Made by a program: the position numbers and the translations under genes
From: an uncultured Bacilli bacterium
GTDB lineage: Bacteria > Bacillota_I > Bacilli_A > RF39 > UBA660
NCBI GenBank assembly: GCA_934098705.1
Contig: CAKOPC010000002.1
Coordinates: 250,681 to 314,680 of the forward strand
DNA: 64,000 nt
Direction: 5' to 3'
Notes under the pieces: model-generated
What the model was told of the DNA's origin: nothing
The model's input: the letters and a program-made list of their open reading frames with translations, nothing else
Databases searched by the model: none
Part shown: piece by piece, positions 7,775-64,000 of the stretch
Layout: each line of letters begins with the position of its first letter
How positions within the stretch are numbered: position 1 is the first letter of the stretch

Positions 7775-7822
7775 TTTATTTTTTGTTTAAAAAGTGTGAT
7801 AATATTTAATAGGAGGTAAAAT

Positions 7823-9232
7823 ATGAAAAAACATAATTTATTTAAAGTAGTAGGAATTGTCATATTAGCTTATGTAATCTTAACTTGGTTTGTTAATGCA
7901 TCATATTTCCAAGGAACATTACAAGGCGGTGGTAAAGCTGAGGTAGGACTTGGATATTTAATTAATATACCAGTTCAAACGCTTGGATATTTTTCATACG
8001 TATTTGTATTTATCTTAGCGGTAGGAGCATTTTATGAATTATTAAATGCAACTGGTGTATATAAAAAAGCCTTAGATACTATTGTTAAACCATTAAAGAA
8101 ACATAAACAAATAACTTTAATTGTAACAACAGTACTTATAGCTTTATTATCATCATTTACAGGATTAGAACTTGGAATGTTATTTATATTCCCATTTGTA
8201 ATATCAGTAATTATTATGCTTGGATATGATAAGATAACAGCACTTCTTGCAACATTAGGAGGAGTAGTTGTTGGTATGATAGGATCAACATATTCATACA
8301 ATTCATATGGAATAATTAATAATATTTTAGGAGTATCTTATAATGACGCTATACTTTTAAAAGTAATACTTTTAGTATTATCACTAGCTTTATTAATAGT
8401 ATTTATGCTATTACGTTTAAAATCTTTAAAGAAAGCTAAAGATTTAAATAAAGAAGCAATGGAACTTTTAACAGCAGAAGATAAACAAAGAAAAAATACA
8501 TGTCAAAAAGTATGGCCTATTATAACAATGATTTGCTTAGCATTTGTTATTTTATTACTTGGTGTAACAAACCTAAAAGATGCTTTTAATATTACTTGGT
8601 TTGATGATGCACTAACAGCAATAACTGGAGTAAAAATAGGCGACTATGCTTTATTTGATAAACTTTTAGGAGGAATAACAGCCTTTGGAACTTGGAGTGG
8701 TCCTTCTAAATTTATCTACTTTACAGGAACACTTATAGTAATAAGTATAATAACTGCTATAATATATAAAGTAAGTTTCAATGATTATATAGACTCAATA
8801 TGTAAAGGTGCTAAAGAAAATCTAAAAGCAGCAGTACTTGCAGTATGTGCTTATATGGTACTTGTAATTGCAAGTTCTTTCCCAATATTCTTAACAATTA
8901 CAAAAGCCATAACAGCAGAAAAATTTAATGTTGCAACAACAGGTATTTCAGCACTTTTAGGAAGCTTACTTTATGTTGACATTTACTACTATCCACAATA
9001 TGTATTACAATATTTTGCATCATTTAAAGATGTAGATGCAAATATATTAAGTGTATTATTTGTAAGTATATATAGTTTAGCATTAATTGCTATGCCAACT
9101 AGTGTATTACTTCTTACAACATTACAAAAGACTAATACTACTTATCCAGAATGGATAAAACAAATTTGGAAGTTGTTTGTAGGACTTTTAATATTAATAC
9201 TTGTTGTACTTGCAATATTCTATGTAATATAA
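7823..9232 (+). CDS. polytopic membrane protein, possible YfcC/DcuC-like transporter
   Basis: 469 aa with about 12 hydrophobic segments. The family guess comes only from size and topology. Confidence 0.4.
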   Translation: MKKHNLFKVVGIVILAYVILTWFVNASYFQGTLQGGGKAEVGLGYLINIPVQTLGYFSYVFVFILAVGAFYELLNATGVYKKALDTIVKPLKKHKQITLIVTTVLIALLSSFTGLELGMLFIFPFVISVIIMLGYDKITALLATLGGVVVGMIGSTYSYNSYGIINNILGVSYNDAILLKVILLVLSLALLIVFMLLRLKSLKKAKDLNKEAMELLTAEDKQRKNTCQKVWPIITMICLAFVILLLGVTNLKDAFNITWFDDALTAITGVKIGDYALFDKLLGGITAFGTWSGPSKFIYFTGTLIVISIITAIIYKVSFNDYIDSICKGAKENLKAAVLAVCAYMVLVIASSFPIFLTITKAITAEKFNVATTGISALLGSLLYVDIYYYPQYVLQYFASFKDVDANILSVLFVSIYSLALIAMPTSVLLLTTLQKTNTTYPEWIKQIWKLFVGLLILILVVLAIFYVI

Positions 9233-9236
9233 CAAA

Positions 9237-9268
9237 AATTAGTGGTTTTAAAATCACTAATTTTTTTT
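9237..9268 (+). terminator. intrinsic terminator
   Basis: Stem AATTAGTG / CACTAATT followed by a T-run. Confidence 0.65.
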
Positions 9269-9325
9269 GCATAATTTTTTTATTTTTTCCTCATTACAAA
9301 CATAGAATATTAATGGAGGAAATCT

Positions 9326-11605
9326 ATGTTTAAAAAATATGATGAAGAAGCAAAAAAAGTATTAATTAATATGAGAAGTGAAATGGTAAATTTAAGACAC
9401 CCTTATATTGGAAGTGAACATTTACTTTTATCAATATTAAAATGTGCCAGTAAAGATTTAACATCAAAATTAGAAAAATATGGTTTAACATATAAATCCT
9501 TTAAAACAGAACTTATAAATATCGTAGGTTTAGGACATGAAAGTAATGATTTTTATCTTTATACACCACTTTTAAGAAATATTTTGGATAATGCAAGTAA
9601 CTTAAAAGAAAAGGATGACGTAACAGTATATGATCTTTTAACATCTCTTCTTGAAGAAGGGGATGGCATTGCTATAAGAATAATGTTAGGAATGAATATA
9701 AATGTTACTAAAATGTATGAAGATATGCAAAATAAAATAATAAAGAAGAATAAAAAAAGTAAAATGTTAATAGATAGTTTTGGAATAAATTTAAATGAAA
9801 AAGTAAAAAATGGTGATATAGTAGTAGGAAGAGATAAAGAAATAAAAAAAGTGATAGAAATATTATCAAGAAGATGTAAAAATAATCCTCTTTTAGTAGG
9901 AGATGCTGGGGTTGGTAAAACTGCTATAGTAGAAGAAATAGCAAGACTTATAGAAAATGAAAAAATACCAAGTTTAAATGGAAAAAAAATAATATCTGTA
10001 TCCATGTCAAATTTAGTTGCAGGAACTAAATATCGTGGTGAATTTGAAGAACGATTAAGTAAAATAATAAAAGAACTTGAAAAAAATGATGATGTAATTA
10101 TTTTTATAGATGAAATACATACTCTTGTAGGGGCTGGTGGTGCCGAAGGAGCAATAGATGCTTCCAATATATTAAAACCATCCCTTGCAAGAGGTAAAAT
10201 AAAGGTGATAGGAGCAACAACAACAGAAGAATATAAAAAATTTATTCAAAAAGATAAAGCCCTAGATAGAAGATTTCAAAAAGTTGTAATTGAAGAACCA
10301 AGTATAGAAGTAGTAAAAGATATTATAATGAAACTATCCCCAGTATATGAAAGTTATCACAAAGTAAAAATAGATGATAATGCTATAAATGCGATAGTAG
10401 ACCTATCCGCTAAATACATATATGATAGAAAAATGCCTGATAAAGCAATAGATGTTTTGGATGAAGTATGTTCTAAAGCTAAAACAACTAAAGAAAGATT
10501 AGAACAAGAAATTGAAGAAACTAAAGATAAAATAAAAAGTTTAAAAAATGATAAAAATAAAAGTATTATAGATAATAACTTTTCTTTAGCATTTACATAT
10601 AAACAAGAAGAAAATAAACAACTAGATAAATTAAATAAACTAGAACTTAAATATAGTAATAAAGAAAGGGTAAAAAAAGTTACTATAAAAGATGTAAAAG
10701 ATGTTATATATGAAATAAGTAAAATACCACTTGATATAGAAAATAATGAACTAAAAGTTTTTAAGCAAAAATTAAATAGCACAGTAATAGGTCAAGAAAA
10801 AGCAGTAGATAAATTATATGAAGCCTCAAAAAGAATAAAGTACAGCATAAATAAAGATAAAAGGCCAATATCCTTTCTATTTGTTGGTACAACAGGTGTT
10901 GGTAAAACATATCTAGCTAAAGAATATTCATCATTAATGTATGGCAAAAACTTAATAAGAATTGATATGAGTGAGTATAAAGAACCACATAGTATAAGTA
11001 AGTTAATAGGTTCTCCCGCAGGATATGTTGGTTACGATGATAAAAAATCAGTATTTGAAGAAATAAAAGATAAACCATACTCAGTTCTTTTACTTGATGA
11101 AGTTGAAAAATCATGCAAAGAAGTACTAAATCTATTTTTACAAATACTAGATGAAGGCTATATAAAAGATAGTAGTAAAAATACTATAAGATTTGATAAT
11201 ACTATAATTATAATGACATCAAACCTTATATCTAAAACACAGCAAATAGGATTTAATAAAACAAATGAGGATAGAGATTTTAAACAGTTACAAAACTTTT
11301 TTGGTATAGAATTTTTAAATAGAATAAATAATATTATATACTTTAACGATTTAAAAGAAGAAGATATAGAAAAAATAATAATAAATAAACTTGATTCTTT
11401 AAAAAAGAGTTATAAAATGCAAGATATAAAACTTACTATAAATAAAAAAATTATAAAAGAATTAATATCATTAACTGAATATGAAAAATTTGGAGCAAGA
11501 AGGGTAGATAAAATAATAAGTGATTATATTGAAAGTAAAGTAATAGACAATATAATAGAGGGTGAAACTCTAATAAAAATAGATAACATAGTGAAGGTAA
11601 ATTAA
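9326..11605 (+). CDS. clpC: ClpC-like AAA+ chaperone (Clp_N domain plus two AAA+ modules)
   Basis: Clp_N repeats, Walker A GDAGVGKT and GTTGVGKT, Walker B IIFIDEIH and LLLDEVEK. Confidence 0.8.
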   Translation: MFKKYDEEAKKVLINMRSEMVNLRHPYIGSEHLLLSILKCASKDLTSKLEKYGLTYKSFKTELINIVGLGHESNDFYLYTPLLRNILDNASNLKEKDDVTVYDLLTSLLEEGDGIAIRIMLGMNINVTKMYEDMQNKIIKKNKKSKMLIDSFGINLNEKVKNGDIVVGRDKEIKKVIEILSRRCKNNPLLVGDAGVGKTAIVEEIARLIENEKIPSLNGKKIISVSMSNLVAGTKYRGEFEERLSKIIKELEKNDDVIIFIDEIHTLVGAGGAEGAIDASNILKPSLARGKIKVIGATTTEEYKKFIQKDKALDRRFQKVVIEEPSIEVVKDIIMKLSPVYESYHKVKIDDNAINAIVDLSAKYIYDRKMPDKAIDVLDEVCSKAKTTKERLEQEIEETKDKIKSLKNDKNKSIIDNNFSLAFTYKQEENKQLDKLNKLELKYSNKERVKKVTIKDVKDVIYEISKIPLDIENNELKVFKQKLNSTVIGQEKAVDKLYEASKRIKYSINKDKRPISFLFVGTTGVGKTYLAKEYSSLMYGKNLIRIDMSEYKEPHSISKLIGSPAGYVGYDDKKSVFEEIKDKPYSVLLLDEVEKSCKEVLNLFLQILDEGYIKDSSKNTIRFDNTIIIMTSNLISKTQQIGFNKTNEDRDFKQLQNFFGIEFLNRINNIIYFNDLKEEDIEKIIINKLDSLKKSYKMQDIKLTINKKIIKELISLTEYEKFGARRVDKIISDYIESKVIDNIIEGETLIKIDNIVKVN

Positions 11606-51447: not shown

Positions 51448-52482
51448 ATGACAGTAGTATCAATGAATTATTTATTAGAAGCAGGAGTACATTTTGGACA
51501 TCAAAAAAGAAGATGGAATCCAAAGATGAAAGAATATATATATACATCACGTGATGATATATATATAATTGACTTACAAAAAACAGCAAATCTTATTGAA
51601 GAAGCATATGTTGCATTAAAACAAATAGCAGAAAAAGAAGGAACTGTATTATTTGTAGGTACAAAAAAACAAGCACAAGAAGCAATGCAAGAAAGTGCTC
51701 AAAGAACAGGTATGTATTATGTTACTGAAAGATGGTTAGGGGGAACTTTAACTAACTTTAGAACAATAAGAAGTAGAATTAAAAGACTTGAAGAAATAGA
51801 AAATATGGAAAAAGAAGGTAAATTTGAACTTTTACCTAAAAAAGAAGTAATTAAACTAAAAAAGGAATATGAAAAATTAAACCGTAATTTATGTGGAATA
51901 AGAGATATGAAACATCTTCCAAATGCATTAATTATTGTTGACCCAAGACAAGAAGAAACAGCAATAAAAGAAGCAAGAAAATTACATATTCCAGTATTTG
52001 GTATTGTAGATACAAATTGTGATCCAGATATGGTTGATTACGTAATTCCTGCAAATGATGATGCAGTAAGAAGTGTAAAACTTGTAATTGGTGTATTAGC
52101 AAATGCAGTTGCAGAAGCTTATGGTAAAGAAATGATTAATTACGTATCAAATGAAGATAAAGATAAAAATTCTAAAGAAAACATTATGGAAAAAGCAGTT
52201 AAAGAAGTAAAAGACATCAAAGAAGAAATGAAAACTTTAGATATAGAAAAAGATGTTAAAGAAAAAATCAAAGAAGTAAAAGAAAAAGCTCATAAAAGAG
52301 CAGAAAATATTAAAGTAAAAGCAGAAAATATTAAAAAAGAAGTAAAAGAAAAAGTACAAGAAATTAAAGAAGATGTACTAGAAGAAAAAACTTTAACAGA
52401 ATTAAAAGCTATGGCAAAAGCAAAAGATATTAAAGGCTATAGCACAATGAAAAAGCAAGAATTAATCGATGCTTTAAAATAA
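51448..52482 (+). CDS. rpsB: 30S ribosomal protein S2 with ~110-aa C-terminal extension
   Basis: S2 core ([11 protein letters not shown]). A K/E-rich repeat tail ends in [29 protein letters not shown]. Confidence 0.95.
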
Positions 52483-53386: not shown

Positions 53387-53418
53387 AAGATTCAAAGATT
53401 AAACTTTGAATCTTTTTT
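53387..53418 (+). terminator. intrinsic terminator
   Basis: Stem AAGATTCAAAG / CTTTGAATCTT followed by a T-run. Confidence 0.8.
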
Positions 53419-53483: not shown

Positions 53484-54434
53484 ATGAATTATATGAGATA
53501 TAAACGTTTAAAAAAAATTAATATTAAGTTTTTAAAAAGAAAAAAATTTATAATTTTAATTTGTATCTTATTACTTGTTATAACATCTTCTCTTACATTT
53601 GGTAAATATTTTCATGATGGTTTGCAAAATTTTTATTTTCAAACTAAAAAGTTTTATTTTAATAGTGATAAATTAAAAGATAAAACTGCAACTTATAGTT
53701 TAGATAACTGGTCTGGAGCGGGAGAATATACAATAAATATTAATATGAATAGTATAAAAAATAATTTATTAAAGGCAGAAACAGATATAAGTTATAATAT
53801 TACTTATCAGTGTCCGTCAACAGTTACTTGCCAAATAACAAAAACAAGTGGTGTAATATATGGAAGTGTTAATAATGATTCATTTAATATAGTAGTAACA
53901 CCAAATACAACATTTCATGATGGTGATACAATACTTATATATGTATCTGCAACGTCAACATCACCTTATGAAAAAACAATATCCGCAAGATTCATTTTAA
54001 AGGTAGGTAAAATAGGATTATCATATGAAATAACAGATGAAGAAAAAAGTCCCTACTTAGAGTTTAGAATAACTAATACTATAGATTATTATTTAGTTGA
54101 AGAAGCTTTTGATAATTATAATATTGGTGATAGAATTGATATTGGGCCATATCTTAACCTTCCATCTTCTAAAAAAGATAAATGTTATTCAGCCTATATA
54201 ACATTAACATTTGATCCAAATGTTGTAAGACTTGATTTAACAAATCCTTCATATTTAATAAAAACAAATGAAACAACTAGCCTTATAGAGGGTAATAGTT
54301 ATATTAATGGATACACTTTTAAAATGGAGGCCATATCATCACAAATGGTTAGATTTTATAAAGTAAATCCATTAAATAACTACACATATCCCTTAGTCAA
54401 TGAAACATCAGTAATTAACTTTGAAAGTAGGTAA
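53484..54434 (+). CDS. secreted/anchored beta-rich protein with LTFGKYF post-TM motif
   Basis: 316 aa. A basic N-terminus and TM are followed by T-F-G-K-Y-F, resembling the motif shared by five neighbouring genes. Confidence 0.5.
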   Translation: MNYMRYKRLKKINIKFLKRKKFIILICILLLVITSSLTFGKYFHDGLQNFYFQTKKFYFNSDKLKDKTATYSLDNWSGAGEYTININMNSIKNNLLKAETDISYNITYQCPSTVTCQITKTSGVIYGSVNNDSFNIVVTPNTTFHDGDTILIYVSATSTSPYEKTISARFILKVGKIGLSYEITDEEKSPYLEFRITNTIDYYLVEEAFDNYNIGDRIDIGPYLNLPSSKKDKCYSAYITLTFDPNVVRLDLTNPSYLIKTNETTSLIEGNSYINGYTFKMEAISSQMVRFYKVNPLNNYTYPLVNETSVINFESR

Positions 54435-54440
54435 AGTATT

Positions 54441-55412
54441 ATGAAAGAAAATATTATAGATACATATACATCATATTTTAGAAAAATGGTACATAATAAT
54501 GCTTGTATGATTTTAGAAAAATACTATATAAAAGACATAATTGAAAGTTTTATAGATAATTACATATCATATGCTTTTTATGACTTTTATGCTCCAGATT
54601 CTAAAATAAAAAATGTAAATATTTATAAAAATTTTGAAGACTTAAAAAACCATATGAATAAAGAAACACTATATTATAAAGATGAAATAGAAGTAAATTA
54701 TAAAATGTTTTTATACGCTAAAAATTTAATAGAAATGAAGGAATATGATAGTAACTTAGTAAATGAAATTATTATGTATAAAAACAGTTTGATAAATGAA
54801 GATAAGGATAAAAATAAAAAAATACAAGAAGATATAAAATCTGCATTTGAAATAAAAGAAAAATTTTTTCTATCATTTAAAACAGATGATTTTTACTTAG
54901 AATATGAAAAAACAAATGTTAAAAAATTATATAATGTAACATTAGAATATAATATTAAGTTTCCAGAAATTTATAGTACTTTTGCCATAAATAAAGCATA
55001 TCAAAGAGACCTTGTTAACGAGCAAAAAATATTTGTTTATTACTATATGTTAACATTTAATATTTTAAATGATACGATATATTGTAATACTAATAAATAC
55101 TATTTAGTAGATTTTGATTATACTATATTTGAAAAAGAACAAAAAATAAAAAGATTATTTAAAATAATAGATAATGATTTAATAAAAGATAGGCTAATAT
55201 TTAAAATTACTTATAAAGATTATAAAAATAATGAAAAGAATATAAAAAATATGATTAAAAATGGCTATAAAATAGCTGTTATAATAGATAATGAATTTAC
55301 CATAAATGATAAAATATTATTACAATTAGATATGTTTTATTATATAATAATAAATGATGATAAGTTAAACTTTAAAGAACTAAAGAATAAGACAAACATA
55401 GTAACGTATTAG
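54441..55412 (+). CDS. cytoplasmic hypothetical protein (possibly a degenerate EAL-like fold)
   Basis: 323 aa with no TM. The C-terminal ...LIFKITYKDY...GYKIAVIIDNEF...LQLDMFYYIII loosely recalls the EAL strand pattern. Confidence 0.4.
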   Translation: MKENIIDTYTSYFRKMVHNNACMILEKYYIKDIIESFIDNYISYAFYDFYAPDSKIKNVNIYKNFEDLKNHMNKETLYYKDEIEVNYKMFLYAKNLIEMKEYDSNLVNEIIMYKNSLINEDKDKNKKIQEDIKSAFEIKEKFFLSFKTDDFYLEYEKTNVKKLYNVTLEYNIKFPEIYSTFAINKAYQRDLVNEQKIFVYYYMLTFNILNDTIYCNTNKYYLVDFDYTIFEKEQKIKRLFKIIDNDLIKDRLIFKITYKDYKNNEKNIKNMIKNGYKIAVIIDNEFTINDKILLQLDMFYYIIINDDKLNFKELKNKTNIVTY

Positions 55413-55422
55413 GAGGATTAAA

Positions 55423-56943
55423 ATGAATACATTTATAAGATTTTTATATGAATTTTTAAGGCAATTTTTCTCAGGTTTTAAAAGCTTTTTTAGTGGTCTT
55501 TTAACTGGAATAAAAGATACCTTTAGTATAGGATCATATATAAAAATACTTAACGAGTATAAAAATGATTTTAATGGTGCTGAATGGGTTTTTGTGTCTT
55601 TAACAATTATTTTACTTTTAATATTAATATCTGCACTTGGATTTATAATTTACTTTATAATAAAGAAATATTTAAGATTTAGAAAAACTTTAGTAGAGCA
55701 GGAAGAAATGTTAGAAGAAATAGCTAAACTTAATAAAGAAGTTGCTATAATGACGAAAGAAAAACAAGATATATTATCTATGAAAGTATCACAACTTGGT
55801 CTATCTCCTGATGAAGATGATGAAACAGAAGAAAATGCAAAACCAGAAGAAGAAGAAAACTTAGGAATAAGATTTGCTAAATTAAACGAAATAGACGAAG
55901 AGTTTAAAGATTATAAAATTCAAAATTATGGGAATACATTTACTCTTGAAGAATTAGTTAATTTGTTTAGAAATTTTGCTGCATCTAAACTTAAATTATA
56001 TTATTCTGTTGAAATGATAAGACTTTTTATATCTGCCATTGCTTCAACTAAACTTATTATTTTACAAGGTATATCTGGTACTGGTAAAACATCTCTTGCT
56101 TATGCATGGGGAAAGTTTTTAAAACACGATTCCTGTGTTGCTTCAGTACAACCATCATGGAGAGACCGTACAGAGCTATTTGGTTATTTTAACGAATTTA
56201 CCAAAAAGTTTAATGAAACAGAAGTATTAAAGGAAATATATATGGCAGGTTATACTGATGATATTTATACAGTAATACTGGATGAAATGAATATATCACG
56301 TGTTGAGTACTACTTTGCAGAAATGTTATCAATACTTGAAATGCCAAATAAAGATGAGTGGATAGTAGAACTTGTACCAAGTAAATGGAAAAATGACCCT
56401 AAAAAGTTAATTGGAGGAAAATTAAAAATTGCTCCAAATGTTTGGTATATAGGAACAATAAATAATGATGATTCTACATTTATGGTAACAGATAAAGTAT
56501 ACGACCGTGCTATGCCAATAGATATAAACGATAAAGGAAAAGCATTTGAACCAGTTCAAACAGATGCTCAAGATATAAATTATTCCTATCTTGATTCGTT
56601 ATTTCAAACTGCAATAAAAGAAAATGAAATAACAGAAGAATCATTAAAGAAAATTGAAGAAATGGATGACTACGTTATTAAACATTTCCGTATTGCTTTT
56701 GGTAACCGTATTGTAGCTCATATGAAAAAATTTGTACCAGTATATAAAGCAGCTGGAGGTACTGAACTTAATGGAATAGACTACTTTATGGCACGTAAAG
56801 TACTTAGAAAATTCGAGCAATTAAACATTTCTTATATAAGAGATGAAATAGATGGCTATATAAAATTTTTGGATGACAAATTTGGAGAAAATGAATTTAA
56901 AGAATGTAAAGAATATTTATTAAGATTAAAGAAATTAGCTTAA
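55423..56943 (+). CDS. membrane-anchored, coiled-coil McrB-family (AAA_5) GTPase
   Basis: TM at ~aa 55-80, then a coiled coil and acidic linker. Walker A GISGTGKTS, Walker B VILDEMN, and McrB-type GTINNDDS (NxxD). Confidence 0.75.
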   Translation: MNTFIRFLYEFLRQFFSGFKSFFSGLLTGIKDTFSIGSYIKILNEYKNDFNGAEWVFVSLTIILLLILISALGFIIYFIIKKYLRFRKTLVEQEEMLEEIAKLNKEVAIMTKEKQDILSMKVSQLGLSPDEDDETEENAKPEEEENLGIRFAKLNEIDEEFKDYKIQNYGNTFTLEELVNLFRNFAASKLKLYYSVEMIRLFISAIASTKLIILQGISGTGKTSLAYAWGKFLKHDSCVASVQPSWRDRTELFGYFNEFTKKFNETEVLKEIYMAGYTDDIYTVILDEMNISRVEYYFAEMLSILEMPNKDEWIVELVPSKWKNDPKKLIGGKLKIAPNVWYIGTINNDDSTFMVTDKVYDRAMPIDINDKGKAFEPVQTDAQDINYSYLDSLFQTAIKENEITEESLKKIEEMDDYVIKHFRIAFGNRIVAHMKKFVPVYKAAGGTELNGIDYFMARKVLRKFEQLNISYIRDEIDGYIKFLDDKFGENEFKECKEYLLRLKKLA

Positions 56944-56964
56944 TAAAAGTATTAGGAGGATAAA

Positions 56965-58074
56965 ATGGATGATTTAAAAGTATTAAATTTTTATAACGCT
57001 AATAATAAAAACCTAGTTAAATCATTTAATAATAATATTGATTCTTCATTAAATGTAAAATTAGATTATAATAAAGTTGAAACAGATACAAATTGGATAG
57101 ATAAAATGACAGAAACGATACCATACCTTGACAACATATTAAGAAATCCTAATAGATTTATTGTAAATGAAGAAGACGTTGTAAAAATAGAGCTTGCAAG
57201 AAGAATTACTGTTGAAAGCATAAAGCATTTATCACGTAATACTAATTTTATTCAAGATTATAATAAGAAAACAGGAGATGTAAGGCCTTCCAAGATTTTA
57301 AACATAAATAAAGAAGAAAGTTTTAATACTTATGAAAACAGATTTATATATAGTTTAATAAAAAATATGCAGTTTTATATTGCTAGAAAAAAATCTCTTG
57401 GAATAAAAGATCCATTTTGTAAAGATAATAAACTATTAACCTATAATGGTGTAACTAAAGTTGGCAAAGAACATGTTAATATATCATTAAATCTAAAATC
57501 TGAAAAACAAGAAACCTCAAAAGTTAAGTCATTAGAAGAACAAATAGCAGAACTTGAAATAAAAATAGCAGATTTAACAAGAGCAGATGTCTTTAAAAGC
57601 ATTGATAAGTTACATATTGCCCTTGTAACATCTCCCATAAAAAAGACAAATATGATATTAAAAAATGTTAATTTTCAATATGCACTAAGCTTGTGGAATT
57701 ATCTTCAAGAAAATATAGAAGATGATAGTGCAAACATAAAAGAAAAAAAAGATTATAACGATAATGGCGATTTAAAAAAATATATAGATGAAACTATGAT
57801 GTTAAACTATTTAGTGATGACATCTTTAAATAAAGAACAAAAAAAAGAAGAAATAAATAAAGAAGAAATAGCAGAAAAATTAATTGCAAATATGGTAGAA
57901 AAAGTACTTGATGTAAATGAAACTTTAAATGAAGAAATGTTAAAAAATATTGTAAGTAAACAATATGCTGTAATAAAATATAAAAATGTAGAAAATGATA
58001 TAGAATTACAAAGAAGATTTAAAAAATATCTTAATGAATATATAAAAAAAGTAAGTGAGGCAAAGTTAATATGA
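56965..58074 (+). CDS. partner protein, possibly McrC-N/DUF2357-like, with no nuclease motif seen
   Basis: 369 aa. The NTYENRFIYSLI motif recalls McrC-type partners. The central and C-terminal parts are coiled-coil-like. I found no PD-(D/E)xK motif. Confidence 0.4.
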   Translation: MDDLKVLNFYNANNKNLVKSFNNNIDSSLNVKLDYNKVETDTNWIDKMTETIPYLDNILRNPNRFIVNEEDVVKIELARRITVESIKHLSRNTNFIQDYNKKTGDVRPSKILNINKEESFNTYENRFIYSLIKNMQFYIARKKSLGIKDPFCKDNKLLTYNGVTKVGKEHVNISLNLKSEKQETSKVKSLEEQIAELEIKIADLTRADVFKSIDKLHIALVTSPIKKTNMILKNVNFQYALSLWNYLQENIEDDSANIKEKKDYNDNGDLKKYIDETMMLNYLVMTSLNKEQKKEEINKEEIAEKLIANMVEKVLDVNETLNEEMLKNIVSKQYAVIKYKNVENDIELQRRFKKYLNEYIKKVSEAKLI

Positions 58075-58709
58075 TAGAGAAGTTAAAAAAAACATATAAT
58101 GATATAATGGAAAAAGATATAGTAAAATTTACACTAGGTTTTATAAAGGTTGTTATAGCTATATTTATTATATTAATAATGTCCGTTATAATAATACAAA
58201 AAGTATCAAATAACAATTTATCTTTAGGTGGTTATAGATTATTTACTATAGTTACAGGTAGTATGGAACCAAAATATAAAGTTGGAGATATGGTACTTGC
58301 AAAAGAAGTAAAAGCTAAAGATATAGAAGTATTAGATGATGTTGTATATAATGGTAAAGAAGATGATTTTAATGGTAAAATTGTAGCTCATCAAGTTATA
58401 AAAAAAGAAGTTAAAAATGGAAAATACAGTTTTATAACAAAAGGAATTGCTAATCAAAGCGAAGATCCTAAAATAAGTGAAGAACAAATAATAGGTAAAA
58501 TAATATACAAAACAGTTATACTAAGTTTTATAACAAAAATTGTTAATAACTTATATGGATTCTACTTTCTTTTATTTGTACCGATAGTTGTATTAACATT
58601 TATAGAAATTATTAAAGCAATAGAGGAAAAAAAGGAAGAAAAAGAGGAGAAAAGAAAATTAAAAGAAAAAGAAGAATCTAAAAAACAAGATGATGAGGAA
58701 GAATTATAA
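58071..58709 (+). CDS. SipW-like (ER/archaeal-type) signal peptidase I
   Basis: TGSMEP (Ser), AHQV (His), TKGIANQSEDP, and both N- and C-terminal TMs. 4-nt overlap with the upstream gene. Confidence 0.8.
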   Translation: MIEKLKKTYNDIMEKDIVKFTLGFIKVVIAIFIILIMSVIIIQKVSNNNLSLGGYRLFTIVTGSMEPKYKVGDMVLAKEVKAKDIEVLDDVVYNGKEDDFNGKIVAHQVIKKEVKNGKYSFITKGIANQSEDPKISEEQIIGKIIYKTVILSFITKIVNNLYGFYFLLFVPIVVLTFIEIIKAIEEKKEEKEEKRKLKEKEESKKQDDEEEL

Positions 58710-59314
58710 TGAAAGATATTTTTGATGTAATAAAAAAAGTATTTAAAAAAGTTAAACTATCAACTATACTTCTTTTATTTTTTCTTTTATCTACTAATGT
58801 TTTTGCATGGTTTATTTATACAACTAAAGTGGATTCAAATATTACAGCTCATGTAAAGGCTTGGGATGTTTCATTTACTGTTGGAAGTACTGAACTTTCC
58901 CAAGAGATAAATTTTGATATAGCAGAAGTTTATCCTGGTATGACATCATATCTTCAAAAAATAACAGCAACAAATAATAGTGAAACAAAAGCTAAATTTA
59001 CATATGAAATAATAAGTGCTTCTATTTTAGGAGAAACATATAAAACAGGGCCAAATCTTACAAGCGAAGAACTATCACAAAAATTAGCAAATGATTACCC
59101 ATTTAAAGTTATATTTAATACAGATAATCATTTAATGGCATCACATGGTGGTAAGGGAGAATTTTCCTTGTCAGTTACATGGCCTTATGAAAGCGGAGAT
59201 GACGCTAAAGATACATATTGGGGTAATAAAGCTTATTTATTTAAGAAAAGTAATCCAAGTGTTCCAAGCATAAGTTTAGTTGTTAAAATAAATGCTATAC
59301 AAGTTGAAGAATAA
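58709..59314 (+). CDS. TasA/camelysin-like secreted protein
   Basis: A TM is followed by NVFAWF. The C-terminal part contains VTWPYESGDD. 1-nt overlap with the peptidase gene. Confidence 0.55.
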   Translation: MKDIFDVIKKVFKKVKLSTILLLFFLLSTNVFAWFIYTTKVDSNITAHVKAWDVSFTVGSTELSQEINFDIAEVYPGMTSYLQKITATNNSETKAKFTYEIISASILGETYKTGPNLTSEELSQKLANDYPFKVIFNTDNHLMASHGGKGEFSLSVTWPYESGDDAKDTYWGNKAYLFKKSNPSVPSISLVVKINAIQVEE

Positions 59315-59335
59315 TTAATAAAAAAATAATGTTGA

Positions 59336-59363
59336 AATAATGTTGTTTAAGCATTATTTTTTT
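59336..59363 (+). terminator. intrinsic terminator
   Basis: Stem AATAATG / CATTATT followed by a T-run. Confidence 0.6.
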
Positions 59364-59511
59364 ATTTATAAACTTTTGTAATTTATCAACAGAATATTAA
59401 AAACCTTTAAATCTATAAAAATAATTGTTAAAAATATTTTTATAAAAATAACTTTAAAAAAGGTTATTAAAAAGCTATACAAAAAAACAAACAAATGTAC
59501 GTAAAAAAGTA

Positions 59512-59540
59512 TTGACATACAATTTTGTGTATGCTACTAT
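59512..59540 (+). promoter_or_regulatory. promoter-like element pointing antisense into the 59585..60178 gene
   Basis: TTGACA, 17-nt spacer, TACTAT. Preceded by ACAAACAAATGTAC (59487-59500), which is shared with the uvrB promoter repeats. Confidence 0.35.
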
Positions 59541-59563
59541 ATATGCGTAAGGCGATATTATTG

Positions 59564-59587
59564 TTAAAAAAAGAGAATAATCTCTTA
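59564..59587 (-). terminator. intrinsic terminator of the minus-strand gene
   Basis: On the minus strand: AAGAGA TTAT TCTCTT followed by TTTTTTT. Confidence 0.65.
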
Positions 59588-60178
59588 TTCGCCTTTATTT
59601 TGAATAAATGATAAAGATACATTTAGTAATGCTTTGCTATTTTCATCTGTAGCAGCTAAAGTATCGGCATCATTATCCATATTACTAGAGTCCCCATCAT
59701 TCCACATTACATATACTCTAATTGTTAAAACATCAGTTGTATTATGATTTACAAGACCTGTTATATTTTCATTATAACTTTCAAAGTTAACAACTTCACC
59801 ACCATTTATAGAGTATCCTGTTGTAACAAGGTCAGTAACACTACTTTCAAGAGAAGCATTAGCAGTTATTGTATAATTAAATGAAACATCAGTATCTTTT
59901 GCATCAATTATTATATCAAAATAACCAGTTGATGTAGGAGCAATAACATCACTTTTTATATATTCATTACCACTAAAAACTGGTGTTATAACTTCTTGTG
60001 CTAAAGAACCACTTGTTATATCTTCATCATTAACAAGTATTTTCCATCTAGCAACTGTCATATTAGCTTCACCACTTACATTGTTAATATATTTAGCATA
60101 AGTATCTTGTATAAAAGTTAAACACATTAAAAGAGAAATAAAAGCAATTAATAATCTAAATTTTTTGATTTTAATCAT
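59585..60178 (-). CDS. TasA/camelysin-like secreted protein (inverted paralogue)
   Basis: A TM is followed by DTYAKYI. Contains VYVMWNDGDSS. SD GGAGGG. Confidence 0.55.
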   Translation of the reverse strand: MIKIKKFRLLIAFISLLMCLTFIQDTYAKYINNVSGEANMTVARWKILVNDEDITSGSLAQEVITPVFSGNEYIKSDVIAPTSTGYFDIIIDAKDTDVSFNYTITANASLESSVTDLVTTGYSINGGEVVNFESYNENITGLVNHNTTDVLTIRVYVMWNDGDSSNMDNDADTLAATDENSKALLNVSLSFIQNKGE

Positions 60179-60370
60179 AATTTATCCCTCCTTATATATC
60201 TTTACATTATTATTGTATAACAAATGTAAATAAAAAGACAATTATTGTGTAAAAATAAGACATTAATTTTACAAAAAATATGTAAAATTTAAAAGCATTA
60301 TAAATGTTGTTTTTTGTCATGTTTTATGATATTATTATATTGATAATGTAATGATAGGAGAGTATTACGT

Positions 60371-61069
60371 ATGGCAAAAGAAGTACTGGTAACAGCTAAA
60401 AAGTTAAAAAACAGGAAAAAGTTTTATAAACAAGCCAAATGGATTTTACTATTTATACTTATCTTTTTAATTATTGTCTACATTATCCTTGAAGTAACAT
60501 ATAATGGCGGTCATTTTACAATAAGTTTAGACAAAAATACTACTTTAAAACAAAATTTAGTACTTTATGAAGATATTAAATATAAGGAACCCCAAGTAAA
60601 GTTAAGCGCAGGAAAAATTGATTTTTTGGATAATATATCTATTGACTGGATACCAAAAGACATTGATAGTGAAAAAGACGGCTCTCATAATGGAGATAAT
60701 TATATAGCGTATACTTATTATATTGAAAATATAGGGGAAGATGTAGTAAATTACTGGACTGAACTTTATATAGATGATGTAATAAAAAATGTTGATGAAG
60801 CATTAAGAGTTATGGTTTTTGAAAATGGTGAAAAAACTGTTTATGCCAAAATAAACAGTATAACAAATCTTCCTGAAAATGGCACAACACCTTTTTATAG
60901 TAAAGACAAAGTTTTTGTAAGAGAACGTGATTTAATAAAACCAAATGAAATAGATAAATATACTATTGTTATATGGCTTGAAGGGGACGACCCAGACTGT
61001 CTTGATGATATTTTAGGTGGAGAAATCAAGATGCATGTAAAAATAAGAGATGAACATTTTGTTGATTAA
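60371..61069 (+). CDS. membrane-anchored protein of the same family
   Basis: A TM is followed by VTYNGGHF. The C-terminal IVIWLEGDDPDC..GGEIKMHVKI parallels the next gene. Confidence 0.5.
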   Translation: MAKEVLVTAKKLKNRKKFYKQAKWILLFILIFLIIVYIILEVTYNGGHFTISLDKNTTLKQNLVLYEDIKYKEPQVKLSAGKIDFLDNISIDWIPKDIDSEKDGSHNGDNYIAYTYYIENIGEDVVNYWTELYIDDVIKNVDEALRVMVFENGEKTVYAKINSITNLPENGTTPFYSKDKVFVRERDLIKPNEIDKYTIVIWLEGDDPDCLDDILGGEIKMHVKIRDEHFVD

Positions 61070-61078
61070 GAGGTATTT

Positions 61079-62089
61079 ATGAAGAAAACAAAAGAAGAGA
61101 AAAAGGAAGTAAACAGATTATTTTTATTGTTATTATTAACATTTGGAACACTTATACTTTTTTCAGTATCGTCATATGCTTGGTTTTCAGCAAATAGGAT
61201 GGTTACTATTGATTCACTTGATATAAAAGTAGCAACAGTTGGGGGAATTGATATATCAGCAGATGCCTTAAACTGGAAAGTTGCTCTTACAACAAGTGAA
61301 CTTATTGATGTTAAAGATACAACCTATCAAACAAGTATAAATCAAATTCCCCTTTATTTAGAACCAGTATCAACTGGGGGATTAATTGATGATAATGGTC
61401 TTTTAAAACTATATCATGGTATTGCAACAAATGATGATATAAATGGAAACTTTTTATTAACAACAACAAGAAGTATTGAGGAATTTGGATATGGTGTTTT
61501 AAGTAGTGGTAAGTTTATTGCTTTTGATATATTTTTAAGGACAACAGCTCCTAAAAACCTATATTTAACAACAGATTCAAAAGTAACATATAATGGTGAA
61601 AAAACTGTAGGAATTGAAAATGCTTTTAGAATCGCTTTTTTAAATGAAGGTAATGTAACCAAAGATACTAATTATTTAATAGCTCAAGCTTTAAAAGGAG
61701 CAACAAAGCCTTATATTTGGGAACCAAATTATGATACTCATACAGAAGGTGGTGTCTTTAATGCACTTAATACATATGGAATAACAACAACCATGGAAAA
61801 TAGTGAAAAAATAGATTATGATGGTGTAATAGATGAAATAACAAGGGAAGATAATATCTCATTAAGCGGTGCAAGTGAGGCTTTAAATAGTACAAAATTT
61901 AAAAGAGTAGATGTTGATTATGCTACTAAAACAAATAGAGATAGTTATGAAAGAATATTTGATATTCCAAGTGGAATAAGTAAAATAAGAATATACATAT
62001 GGATAGAAGGACAAGATGTTGACTGTGAAAATGAAGCATCAGTTGGAGATGCTAAGTTAACATTAAAACTATCAACTAATCCATCATAG
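61079..62089 (+). CDS. TasA/camelysin-like secreted protein
   Basis: A TM is followed by SSYAWFSANR. C-terminal IYIWIEGQDVDC..GDAKLTLKLS. Confidence 0.6.
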   Translation: MKKTKEEKKEVNRLFLLLLLTFGTLILFSVSSYAWFSANRMVTIDSLDIKVATVGGIDISADALNWKVALTTSELIDVKDTTYQTSINQIPLYLEPVSTGGLIDDNGLLKLYHGIATNDDINGNFLLTTTRSIEEFGYGVLSSGKFIAFDIFLRTTAPKNLYLTTDSKVTYNGEKTVGIENAFRIAFLNEGNVTKDTNYLIAQALKGATKPYIWEPNYDTHTEGGVFNALNTYGITTTMENSEKIDYDGVIDEITREDNISLSGASEALNSTKFKRVDVDYATKTNRDSYERIFDIPSGISKIRIYIWIEGQDVDCENEASVGDAKLTLKLSTNPS

Positions 62090-62129
62090 TAAAATAAACA
62101 CAAAATAAAAATAAAGAAAGGGGAAACTT

Positions 62130-64000
62130 ATGAAAAAGTTAATAAAGAAATTAAAATTTAAAAAACTTAGTTCAAATACAAAAGTTAAAATTATTTTTAT
62201 GCTTCCTGTATTTTCTTTATTAATAATTTTAATTACTACTTTCTTTAAAACATATGGGGATTATGTAACAAATCCAAATAGCAAGCAAAGTGGTGTAACC
62301 GAAGATACTGTGTATATAAATGACGATATGAGAGATTGGTATTACTACATGGGATTAAATTACACAGAAAATGATGGTACTTTGCCAACTGCTGTTGATA
62401 AAAAAATATATAGTAACAAAAATTTAGTAAGACTTAATATAACATATGATAGTTTAGATTTAATACATAATGCAACAAGCTATGTTGGAATAAGTGAAAC
62501 ACAGTCAAAGTACGTATATTACAAAGTATTAAATGTTAATGATAATGGCACAGAATCAAAACTTGATGATTATGTAATGTTAGAATTAATAGATAATCCT
62601 TTTGCTAATATTCCAGATGATTTAGCATTTAATGGCTGGATAACAAATTATGAAAATGTAAAATTAAGTTTTGACAATACATATTATGTAAGATATGCCA
62701 AAATACCAGTAACTTATAATAGCAATGACACTCCAAGTGATATAACAATTACCTTTAATGCAAGTTATGTACCAGCAAATAAAGTAATACTAGGACAAAC
62801 TTCATGGAATAATGCTCTAAATAATCTAGATAATGCTGTTATGAAAAATATTAAAGTTTTTGAACTTGAATATAAATATGATATAACAGATGATTATTAT
62901 ACTAGTGTATCAATAGCAAATGGTGAAAGTTGTGCCAATATGTATAACGAACAAGGAGTAAGGCAAAATAATAACTGTACTTGTAGAACTTGGTGGGGAA
63001 ACTGTACTTATTATGAAAAAGTAGAAAGTCAAATATATGATAGTACTAAAAATTATTACAAATTAGAATATAACTATATGCAAAGTGTTGATATAGAACA
63101 AACTTTAGAACCAATAAGTGTTGAATATATCTATTATAATTTGTTTAATGAAAATTCTAATATGGCTGGTTTCTACAGATTAAAAGAAATTGCATATAGA
63201 GAAAATATGGCAGGTTATTATGATGAAAGTGGAAATATTTTAACTGGAAACTGTAATTATAATACTTGTAATGTTTATGAACTAATAAACTATTATGATG
63301 AAAATGGTGTTGAAAATAAAGTAAGTAAAGATGATGATTACTATTACCTTGTAACTAGAGATACTAACATTTTAATTATGAATCAAAATAGGAGTGATAG
63401 TTGGGGAAATAATAGTAAACCGTTTACCTTAAAAGGAATAGATAATAACATTGATTATAACCCAACATGGAATATATCAAGAACATATGTTAAATGTTAT
63501 AATGCAACAAGAATTGAATATATAACAATATCATCAGGTCAAAACTATACATTAAATATTGAACCATCATCAAGTCCTAATTCAAGGGGTTATTTTTATG
63601 GAAATTATAAAAATGTAAAACTAGGTAGAAATATTAAAAGACAAGGAAACTATGCAACATTTAGATCAATACTTGGGGGAGATAACACAAGATATAATAT
63701 TGGAAGTAGTCAAAATCTTACAAAATATAGATTAATTATTGAAAGTGGTTATTATCAAACAATGTCTATAACAAATACTAATAATCAAAATTCTAACCAC
63801 CAAAATATATATATAAAAGCAGAAGCAATTTATGGTAATGATTATGACAGAGTAAGCGATAATAATAACAATTTAATATTATACTACTGTGCTTGTGGTT
63901 CATGGAACGACAACTATTATTCAAATAGTAATGCAGGTATTCTTTTTACTTTAACTGTTAAAAGTGGAATATATGGACAAGGTAAAAAGGATTATACATC
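62130..64000 (+). CDS. large N-terminally anchored surface protein (3' end outside the window)
   Basis: ATG 62130 follows SD AAAGGGGA. The frame stays open to the window edge (over 620 codons, so it is absent from the ORF track). A TM is followed by KTYGDYV. N/Y/Cys-rich. Confidence 0.6.
   Translation, partial: MKKLIKKLKFKKLSSNTKVKIIFMLPVFSLLIILITTFFKTYGDYVTNPNSKQSGVTEDTVYINDDMRDWYYYMGLNYTENDGTLPTAVDKKIYSNKNLVRLNITYDSLDLIHNATSYVGISETQSKYVYYKVLNVNDNGTESKLDDYVMLELIDNPFANIPDDLAFNGWITNYENVKLSFDNTYYVRYAKIPVTYNSNDTPSDITITFNASYVPANKVILGQTSWNNALNNLDNAVMKNIKVFELEYKYDITDDYYTSVSIANGESCANMYNEQGVRQNNNCTCRTWWGNCTYYEKVESQIYDSTKNYYKLEYNYMQSVDIEQTLEPISVEYIYYNLFNENSNMAGFYRLKEIAYRENMAGYYDESGNILTGNCNYNTCNVYELINYYDENGVENKVSKDDDYYYLVTRDTNILIMNQNRSDSWGNNSKPFTLKGIDNNIDYNPTWNISRTYVKCYNATRIEYITISSGQNYTLNIEPSSSPNSRGYFYGNYKNVKLGRNIKRQGNYATFRSILGGDNTRYNIGSSQNLTKYRLIIESGYYQTMSITNTNNQNSNHQNIYIKAEAIYGNDYDRVSDNNNNLILYYCACGSWNDNYYSNSNAGILFTLTVKSGIYGQGKKDYT

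Follow-up and report, generated by a model that had tools for sequence, protein, structure and literature searches.

An McrB/McrC-like GTPase module conserved within a SipW signal peptidase locus of RF39-type Bacilli: a candidate system for surface-fiber or adhesin biogenesis

Why should a GTPase of the McrB family be encoded in one locus with a signal peptidase of the SipW type and a set of putative secreted proteins, when every McrB-family AAA+ protein that has been studied is, to our knowledge, a restriction motor directed at nucleic acid? The question is raised by a locus at the 3' end of a 64,000-nucleotide stretch of DNA (the window) from an uncultured Bacilli bacterium of the RF39 lineage (contig CAKOPC010000002.1, positions 250,681 to 314,680). 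The window has a guanine-plus-cytosine (GC) content of about 25%, and TGA serves as a stop codon. A preliminary description of the locus listed ten open reading frames (ORFs), here called G1 to G10; their coordinates were all reproduced, as were the gaps of 6, 10, and 21 nucleotides and the overlaps of 4 and 1 nucleotides among the first six. Our favored interpretation, to which we assign a probability of roughly 60%, is that the locus encodes a system for the biogenesis of a surface fiber or adhesin, in which SipW would process beta-rich subunits and the McrB/McrC-like module G3/G4 would power or gate their assembly.

The first part of the answer lies in gene order. The product of G3 (positions 55423 to 56943, forward strand) is an McrB-like AAA+ GTPase that belongs to the NxD branch and is anchored in the membrane, and G4 (56965 to 58074, forward) encodes its McrC-like partner with a DUF2357 N-domain. 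The two genes are placed between G2 (54441 to 55412, forward), which encodes a cytoplasmic protein of 323 amino acids (aa) without a transmembrane (TM) segment, and G5 (58071 to 58709, forward), which encodes a SipW or endoplasmic reticulum (ER)/archaeal-type signal peptidase I. We compared this arrangement with two sets of loci. The genome set comprised the best 80 of at least 250 GTDB species with G3 relatives, found by exact peptide patterns and represented by one genome per species; it consisted of metagenome-assembled genomes of uncultured Bacilli, Tenericutes, and Mollicutes together with Clostridium sp. CAG:567, CAG:609, CAG:628, and CAG:914. The distant set comprised 80 metagenome loci of 25 to 56% GC, human-gut contigs included, which were retrieved with an alignment of G3 relatives that are 29 to 39% identical and share the same architecture; their locus genes were found with hidden Markov models built from the RF39-type families. 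Each count of neighbors is given over the loci whose contig leaves room for the gene in question.

In the genome set, G2 was located directly 5' of G3 in 75 of 75 loci, with G1 (53484 to 54434, forward) upstream in 71 of 71. G4 directly followed G3 in 76 of 77 loci, SipW came after G4 in 73 of 75, and next in line, without exception in 70 loci, was G6 (58709 to 59314, forward), which encodes a putative SipW substrate of 201 aa and closes the G1-G6 operon. G7 to G10 usually lay downstream of G6 and were at times permuted to the upstream side. Among the metagenome loci, G4 adjoined G3 in all 66 cases and a SipW homologue was found nearby in 60 of 70; a G8-like gene was present upstream of G3 in 30 of 42, the number of G9-like genes ranged from one to five, and in many of these loci a giant ORF longer than 1,600 aa came next. 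The G8-like genes scored about 200 bits in loci of 37 to 56% GC. As judged from these profile searches, the universal core is G8, one or more G9 proteins, SipW, the McrB-like protein, the McrC-like protein, SipW, and a giant protein, and G1, G2, G6, and G7 are limited to low-GC lineages. Loci of this kind are thus widespread, spanning 25 to 56% GC and at least 250 GTDB species.

These neighborhood counts decide whether the module and the peptidase belong together. An McrBC-like cassette inserted by chance into an unrelated sipW/substrate operon would leave the two apart in relatives; instead, G3-G4 lies between G2 and SipW in every sufficiently long locus of the 80 species and near SipW homologues throughout the 25 to 56% GC range. 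The spacing is operon-tight (the 10- and 21-nucleotide gaps and the 4-nucleotide overlap flank G3 and G4), and a SipW-G2 fusion, described below, ties the flanking genes to each other. Chance juxtaposition, named in the preliminary description as the outcome that would overturn its proposal, had no finding in its favor; it is refuted by the synteny data, and we give it practically no weight. The view of the preliminary description that this is one dedicated system, with the McrB/McrC-like pair syntenic with SipW and the putative substrates, is borne out clearly: the pair is an integral component of the locus.

G3 is also the best-conserved protein of the locus, at 70 to 91% identity across the 80 species versus 25 to 60% for the others, and in the blocks of its GTPase core invariance reaches 95% or more. 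When the window is compared with the nearest species-level relative, G3 shows 90% identity, a higher value than those of RpsB (83%) and EF-Ts (73%). G3 aligns to the Escherichia coli McrB sequence in the PDB through its Walker A (GISGTGKT), Walker B (ILDEMN), and signature (INNDDS) motifs. The N and D of the N-x-D signature are invariant in 18 relatives with 29 to 39% identity and are followed by D, E, or Q (N347-N348-D349-D350 in the window protein), and AAA_5 was matched in 17 of these 18 diverse members. The protein begins with an N-terminal hydrophobic or amphipathic region, followed by a TM segment at about residues 56 to 80, a coiled-coil-like stretch at about 85 to 125, an acidic linker, and the GTPase domain at about 190 to 500. 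The N-terminal DNA-binding domain of McrB was not found in G3, the first 190 residues being occupied by the TM segment, the coiled-coil-like stretch, and the linker. In the window protein and about 40 cluster representatives, the TM segment precedes Walker A by about 150 residues. By eye, ...KVSQLGL.P... and the K/E-rich, heptad-like stretch before it are similar to the C-terminal motif of DivIC/FtsB. At E <= 1e-30, G3 matched 754 clusters (50% identity), TM-less CoCoNuT-like relatives of the GTPase domain included, and the cluster representatives fall into three architectures: about 500 aa with one or two TM segments, 550 to 730 aa with at least three TM segments, and 700 to 870 aa without TM segments (CoCoNuT-like).

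The partner gene was originally described as the second half of a GTPase pair. That description suits G3 only; G4 is an McrC-like partner, which passed the Pfam model DUF2357 (the McrC N-domain) at 36.9 bits versus a cutoff of 23.3. Behind DUF2357, the middle of G4 is helical or a coiled coil, and its C-terminal part is helical and conserved. Family searches found no PD-(D/E)xK nuclease in G4, and its alignment has no invariant Asp or Glu column after position 150; therefore, no conserved acidic catalytic residue is left. A profile search of G4 against the PDB gave no match, and no nuclease or HEPN family was matched by any protein of the locus, those encoded past the window included. G3 and G4 resemble E. 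coli McrBC and the CoCoNuT systems in the AAA+ GTPase fold, the Walker A and B motifs, the Asn/Asp signature, and the DUF2357 partner. The GTPase domain of G3 is about 40% identical to TM-less relatives that have a long N terminus. They differ from McrBC in having NxD rather than NxxD, a TM segment and coiled coil in place of the DNA-binding N-domain, and an McrC without PD-(D/E)xK, and they differ from McrBC and CoCoNuT alike in that no HEPN or other nuclease is nearby and conservation is housekeeping-like.

With such relatives, the locus might be expected to serve anti-phage defense or abortive infection of the McrBC/CoCoNuT type, in which the GTPase would detect invading nucleic acid and the proteins processed by SipW would serve in the envelope as effectors or barriers. 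G3 does fall into the NxD branch of McrB that holds the predicted CoCoNuT defense systems, it matches the PADLOC candidate PDC-M26A (E = 7.8e-32), and homologues of its GTPase domain are found on many plasmids. However, PADLOC recognized the GTPase domain of G3 alone, by that candidate model, and returned no match for G2 or G4; the plasmid search likewise retrieved relatives of the GTPase domain only, with no copy of the TM architecture and none covering at least 80% of the query. Assignment to a defense system was rejected on these grounds. Furthermore, conservation above that of RpsB and EF-Ts, together with a fixed gene order over 80 species, is the opposite of what patchy, fast-evolving defense islands display, and the locus is set among housekeeping genes, the remaining genes of the window having housekeeping and cell-wall functions (murA, mreB, ftsEX, and ribosomal protein genes). 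No effector of a known type accompanies the pair, whose partners are putative secreted structural proteins and genes of cyclic di-GMP (c-di-GMP) signaling. Because of the housekeeping-level conservation, fixed synteny, lack of a nuclease, and structural and c-di-GMP partners, we disfavor a defense role and consider it quite improbable, although the predicted defense systems among the nearest relatives of the GTPase clade leave it some weight.

The composition of the locus had been thought to be undescribed, but the association has already been named: CoCoPALM was introduced in two sentences, with its analysis deferred, for McrB-FtsB-like fusions of the NxD branch that are tied to signal-peptidase homologues or "pilus assembly factors" (Bell et al. 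2024, eLife 13:RP94800, PMC11090510). As in CoCoPALM, an NxD McrB-like GTPase with an N-terminal TM and coiled-coil-like segment adjoins a nuclease-less DUF2357 McrC homologue and is linked to signal-peptidase genes. By sequence, the locus has three of the four CoCoPALM features, namely NxD, the nuclease-less DUF2357 partner, and the association with signal peptidases. CoCoPALM is absent from the text supplements of that study, and a literature search on CoCoPALM, PDC-M26, or RF39 pili found no follow-up in the collection of papers searched. Absent from the paper are the putative G1 and G6 to G10 substrate families, a cleavage-type motif, the giant protein of 2,475 aa, a dead SipW paralogue, the extreme conservation in RF39-like genomes, and two findings that are new here, the SipW-G2 fusion and the link of distant loci to EAL and PilZ proteins.

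What, then, is the module coupled to? The signature of an ER/archaeal-type signal peptidase seen earlier in the G5 product was confirmed by NCBIfam TIGR02228 (archaeal/ER-type signal peptidase I), which it passed at 74 bits versus a cutoff of 51.85, and by alignment to human SEC11C/A over GSMEP, the His, and KG...D, with the catalytic Ser and His aligned (SEC11C, E = 8.7e-5). G5 also matched the SipW model (E = 2.5e-20). It has TM segments at its N and C termini and a K/E-rich cytoplasmic tail. About 8 kb past the window end, on a contig of the same species (L081:20201-20764), lies a further SipW gene, whose 188-aa product has substitutions at the His and at the catalytic Ser of GSMEP (VEDDKLGN...); judged by these replacements, this paralogue is catalytically dead. 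This dead SipW is paired with a G7-like gene, downstream in the source species and upstream of G1 in many relatives, and a second active SipW also occurs in the locus of relatives. The block upstream of G1 in many of them comprises the dead SipW, the G7-like gene, an active SipW, and a TM protein of about 198 aa, so that such loci hold three to five SipW homologues.

The link between the peptidase and the cytoplasm is most direct in five loci of another low-GC lineage (L160, positions 7907 to 9997, and L148, L153, L138, and L106), where SipW and G2 are fused. The fusion proteins, of 631 to 696 aa, consist of an active two-TM SipW (E of about 1e-20 to 1e-24), a linker of about 150 aa, and a G2 domain at the cytoplasmic C terminus (E of about 1e-41 to 1e-45). 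Therefore, G2 is cytoplasmic and physically tied to the peptidase, and from its sequence context it probably acts as a cytoplasmic adaptor of SipW. G2 gave no match to PDB profiles. It is possibly a degenerate EAL-like domain: a profile-profile comparison with EAL gave a probability of 3%, which rose to 14% (E = 0.002) with a broader G2 alignment, and the weak similarity keeps the strand order of the EAL barrel without the catalytic residues. EAL was matched by 1 of 39 G2 members (E = 0.035). A jackhmmer search started from a true EAL neighbor failed to recruit G2, and identification of G2 as an EAL domain was rejected and kept as a lead only.

Genuine c-di-GMP genes occur in the distant relatives. 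At 42% GC, locus L108 encodes a stand-alone EAL protein (positions 7776 to 8519; 92 bits) that adjoins a G8-like gene, as do other loci of this type, and at 56% GC, locus L159 encodes a YcgR-like PilZ protein (1183 to 1863) likewise adjoining a G8-like gene. EAL genes were found in 33 of the 80 metagenome loci. These neighbors suggest signaling control, and the SipW-G2 fusions fit cytoplasmic control of the peptidase; we count both in favor of the fiber or adhesin system, and they also speak for a different role of the pair within it, that of a GTP-dependent regulator, checkpoint, or quality-control device rather than a motor. Such a regulator might sense the state of the envelope or cell cycle through an FtsB-like segment or might gate SipW, and the secreted proteins would then self-assemble after Sec export like TasA. 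It is generally held that a dedicated NTPase is dispensable for TasA, BsaA, and the bundling pili of archaea, and synteny and conservation fit a regulator as well as a motor. On the other hand, it would be unusual for a regulator to keep a whole GTPase core near-invariant across an order, those hexameric McrB rings that have been studied are mechanochemical translocases, and no sensor domain was identified. We regard a purely regulatory role as unlikely, if clearly more credible than defense.

The fiber or adhesin interpretation depends on the proteins that SipW would process. These are encoded by G1 (313 to 316 aa, with an N-terminal TM segment and motif), G6, G7 (59585 to 60178, reverse strand; 197 aa), G9 (61079 to 62089, forward; 336 aa, beta-rich), and G10 (62130 to 64000, forward, open at the window edge), all putative substrates; G8 (60371 to 61069, forward; 232 aa) has a basic N terminus, a TM segment, and an extracellular domain. 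The start of G1 is more likely the second ATG, at 53493 (313 aa), 9 nucleotides past an AAAGGA ribosome-binding site; 53493, not 53484, is also the gene callers' choice on the same-species contigs. Conservation of the motif that follows the TM segment was judged in 51 to 75 orthologues per family. It reads [TS][FYL][GAS][RK]Y in G1, N[ST][FY]AWF[IV]Y in G6, [TS]YAKY in G7, [ST][TS]YAWF[TS]xN in G9, and TYGDY in the window copy of G10. A strict form, [ST][FYW][AGS]x[FYW], was found at the point where the N-terminal hydrophobic segment ends in 4 of 7 locus proteins versus 0 of 16 other window proteins with such a segment. The motif had been attributed to six proteins; it holds for five, the exception being G8, in which the conserved element is Y-x-G-G-x-F-T.

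The same proteins have a second common feature, a C-terminal W-x-[ED]-G-[DQ]-D element. Originally noted in four proteins as W-x-[ED]-G-D-D, it proved to be conserved in all four families, G6 (W-P-Y-E-S-G-D-D), G7, G8 (W-L-E-G-D-D-P-D-C), and G9 (W-I-E-G-Q-D-V-D-C-E). The further suggestion of a single paralogous family is supported for the C termini of G8 and G9 (BLASTP E = 1e-4; hhalign, 83%) and only moderately for G6-G7 (57% over 156 columns) and G1-G7 (51%). Matches of 94% for G6-G9, confined to the signal region, and of 76% for G1-G9 were also obtained, those of G1 with G7 and G9 being over short stretches. G1 had no match in Pfam or NCBIfam. The AlphaFold2 model of G7, with a predicted local distance difference test score (pLDDT) of 75, shows a TM helix, a disordered segment at residues 27 to 40 after the putative cleavage site, and then a jelly-roll beta-sandwich; K29, Y30, W45, and W159 are invariant in the family alignment. 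G7 has paralogues elsewhere in the locus and is a candidate major subunit. The G9 model is confident (pLDDT 87.4; predicted template modeling score, 0.83) and beta-rich. Foldseek returned nothing significant for it, the best E values being 0.1 in the PDB and 0.047 in BFVD, and G9 may represent a novel fold or combine domains in a novel manner.

The locus does not end with the window. Contigs of the same species (L081 to L084; 99.4% nucleotide identity) extend it, and the 623 aa of G10 within the window are the N-terminal part of a protein of 2,475 aa. G10 begins with the TYGDY signal anchor, continues with an N-domain with clustered Cys and a series of "xYGGGN" repeats, G/N-rich and about 1,000 aa long in all, and ends in a conserved C-terminal region. 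The repeats look like a beta-helix, and G10 is a candidate adhesin or fiber shaft; nothing in Pfam, NCBIfam, or the PDB was matched by it. In distant loci, giant ORFs of more than 1,600 to 1,800 aa often hold the same position. Downstream of G10 are a 42-aa ORF, a gene for a 507-aa helical protein, the dead SipW paralogue, and a G7 paralogue. Thus, the ten genes originally counted are too few: at least four more related genes lie past the window edge, and the whole locus in the source genome has at least 14 genes in more than 17.5 kb, about 17.5 kb of which are taken up by G1 to G10 alone. The window covers the first two-thirds of this CoCoPALM-type locus. The 507-aa protein (L081:18625-20145) is cytoplasmic and rich in Lys, Glu, and Asn, had no family match, and has homologues in 17 of the 80 genome loci.

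Several known systems offer points of comparison. A dedicated ER/archaeal-type SipW beside secreted beta-sandwich proteins is also found in TapA-SipW-TasA of Bacillus subtilis, SipW-BsaABC of Clostridium perfringens (for background on SipW/BsaA, see PMC11580942), and the archaeal AbpA bundling pili. In these known loci, a single peptidase serves two or three substrates and an NTPase is lacking, whereas the present locus combines the McrBC-like pair and a giant protein with seven or more substrate-like genes and two or more SipW homologues, of which one is dead. In TasA-type substrates and in the locus proteins alike, the signal peptide closes with [ST]-aromatic-A, and an aromatic residue comes after it. 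The cleavage region of TasA is ...GGGTWA/AFND, with the slash at the cleavage site, comparable to the putative ...SSYA/WFSAN of G9.

Inactive signal-peptidase homologues have a precedent in streptococci, where SipA/LepA is required for pilus assembly. The 188-aa paralogue, an inactive signal-peptidase homologue inside a putative surface-fiber locus, would be the analogue of SipA/LepA of the FCT loci of Streptococcus pyogenes. In streptococcal pili, sortases act on LPXTG pilins, whereas no sortase or LPXTG was seen in this locus. Type IV pili, the Com pseudopilus, and archaeal pili share with the locus a dedicated peptidase, small subunits with a hydrophobic N terminus, and, in some lineages, c-di-GMP control. 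Machines of that type have a hexameric membrane NTPase, whose counterpart here would be a ring of G3. There is no homology between them: the peptidase here is of the SipW type and would cleave after rather than before the hydrophobic segment, the NTPase is of the McrB family rather than PilB/GspE, and no PilC-like platform is present.

From this evidence, we infer cleavage, fiber formation, a motor role, and the roles of the subunits as follows. The beta-rich G1, G6, G7, G9, and G10 proteins and the paralogues encoded outside the window would enter the membrane through signal anchors ending in [ST]-[YF]-[AG]-x-[YF]. One or more SipW peptidases of the ER/archaeal type would then cleave after the small residue, as expected from the -3/-1 rule and the TasA-type precedent, and the freed subunits would build a cell-surface fiber or adhesin. 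In this structure, G7 could be the major subunit, the giant and possibly beta-helical G10 the shaft or tip, and G8 the membrane-anchored base. The membrane-anchored NxD GTPase G3 and the nuclease-less G4 would be integral, non-defense components, most likely arranged beneath the membrane as a plugged hexameric ring; this ring, by hydrolyzing GTP, would drive or gate the extraction, assembly, or secretion of subunits, in a manner resembling that of a type IV pilus ATPase in logic, not ancestry. G2 would connect SipW with the cytoplasmic G3/G4 module, and EAL and PilZ proteins of c-di-GMP signaling appear to control the system in distant relatives.

A number of observations weigh against the fiber or adhesin interpretation. 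We know of no McrB-family AAA+ protein that acts in secretion or assembly and of no member of this class that has been studied by experiment. The closest relatives of the G3 GTPase domain, at about 40% identity, are TM-less or plasmid-borne and belong to predicted defense systems, and the match of G3 is to a candidate-defense model of PADLOC. The similarity of the G3 segment to FtsB/DivIC was unconfirmed by Pfam, in which DivIC was matched by 1 of 18 G3 members (E = 0.012). On the side of the subunits, G8 has no small residue at -1; G8 may therefore remain membrane-anchored. Fold matches lend the fiber no support: G9 gave none and G7 gave only generic jelly rolls (the C terminus of lambda gpJ, phiX174 G, and carbohydrate-binding modules), with TM-scores of at most 0.34 and TasA outside the top 50. 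Peptidase_M73/TasA was not matched in Pfam at E <= 1 by any of the ten locus proteins, nor was it or any other Pfam family matched by the putative substrates or by 36 G7 and 33 G9 family members, and profile searches of PDB sequences, TasA included, found nothing.

The kinship of these proteins with TasA, CalY, and camelysin, as proposed in the preliminary description, is accordingly unsupported by Pfam, NCBIfam, PDB profiles, and Foldseek on the G7 and G9 models. The SipW-cognate model TIGR04088 was not matched at E <= 1 by any protein of the window; the G9-like proteins of locus L159 reached 16.2 and 11.2 bits, below the cutoff of 19 and with the match in the correct place, which we read as resemblance, not membership, on the strength of these scores. 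This signal region is the one link found to the TasA-type proteins. Homology to TasA/camelysin was rejected, as sequence, profile, and structure searches yielded no specific link. It is reasonable to say that the locus proteins behave as a set of SipW substrates; their membership in the TasA family is not supported.

Taking the fiber or adhesin interpretation one step further, the McrBC-derived GTPase might be the engine of an unrecognized Gram-positive filament pathway, with SipW peptidases, new-fold subunits, and c-di-GMP control in many Bacillota and with housekeeping-level constraint in the reduced RF39-like genomes. We offer this larger proposal tentatively, as a possibility to which we lean less than halfway. 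If it is true, this would be a further pathway next to those of sortase pili, type IV pili, and self-assembling TasA fibers, and RF39-like bacteria may use it to attach to host or partner cells. If G3 serves envelope or fiber biogenesis, a defense machine would have been recruited to cell-surface architecture, giving monoderms a new route to appendages. The size of G1 to G10, in what is probably a small genome of the RF39 type, and the constraint on G3 suggest that the locus matters for the gut life of these bacteria. CoCoPALM is a class that has been named but is uncharacterized, and the parts list given here, with its conserved cleavage-type motif, universal core, dead peptidase, SipW-G2 fusion, and c-di-GMP link, makes it directly testable.

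The boundaries of the operon and its surroundings can be described from the window. Upstream, a terminator-like hairpin downstream of tsf (53387 to 53414, forward), with an 11-bp stem followed by a T-run, marks the boundary of the locus. Only the closest relative (L002) has rpsB-tsf upstream; therefore, this neighborhood is outside the system. Directly 3' of G6, an AT-rich hairpin with 27-nucleotide arms is followed by a T-run (59314 to 59369) and is probably, by its sequence, the terminator of the G1-G6 operon. G7, a single gene on the opposite strand, is flanked by intergenic regions of 270 and 192 nucleotides. An invertible, phase-variable segment around G7 was considered and rejected, as only AT-rich inverted repeats of low identity were found there.

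A promoter scan was uninformative in DNA of 25% GC, with 106 sites observed versus 92 expected. Rfam searches of the locus and the 64-kb window matched no riboswitch or leader, the c-di-GMP type included, and no Rfam family reached its gathering score in the window, despite the presence of the infC-rpmI-rplT and rpsB-tsf operons, which often bear leaders. Two of the ribosomal proteins encoded in the window carry extensions that are unusual for core ribosomal proteins: S2 (51448 to 52482; 344 aa) has a long, K/E-rich C-terminal extension ending in a Rho_N domain (PF07498), and L20 (50870 to 51358; 162 aa) has a Lys-rich tail.

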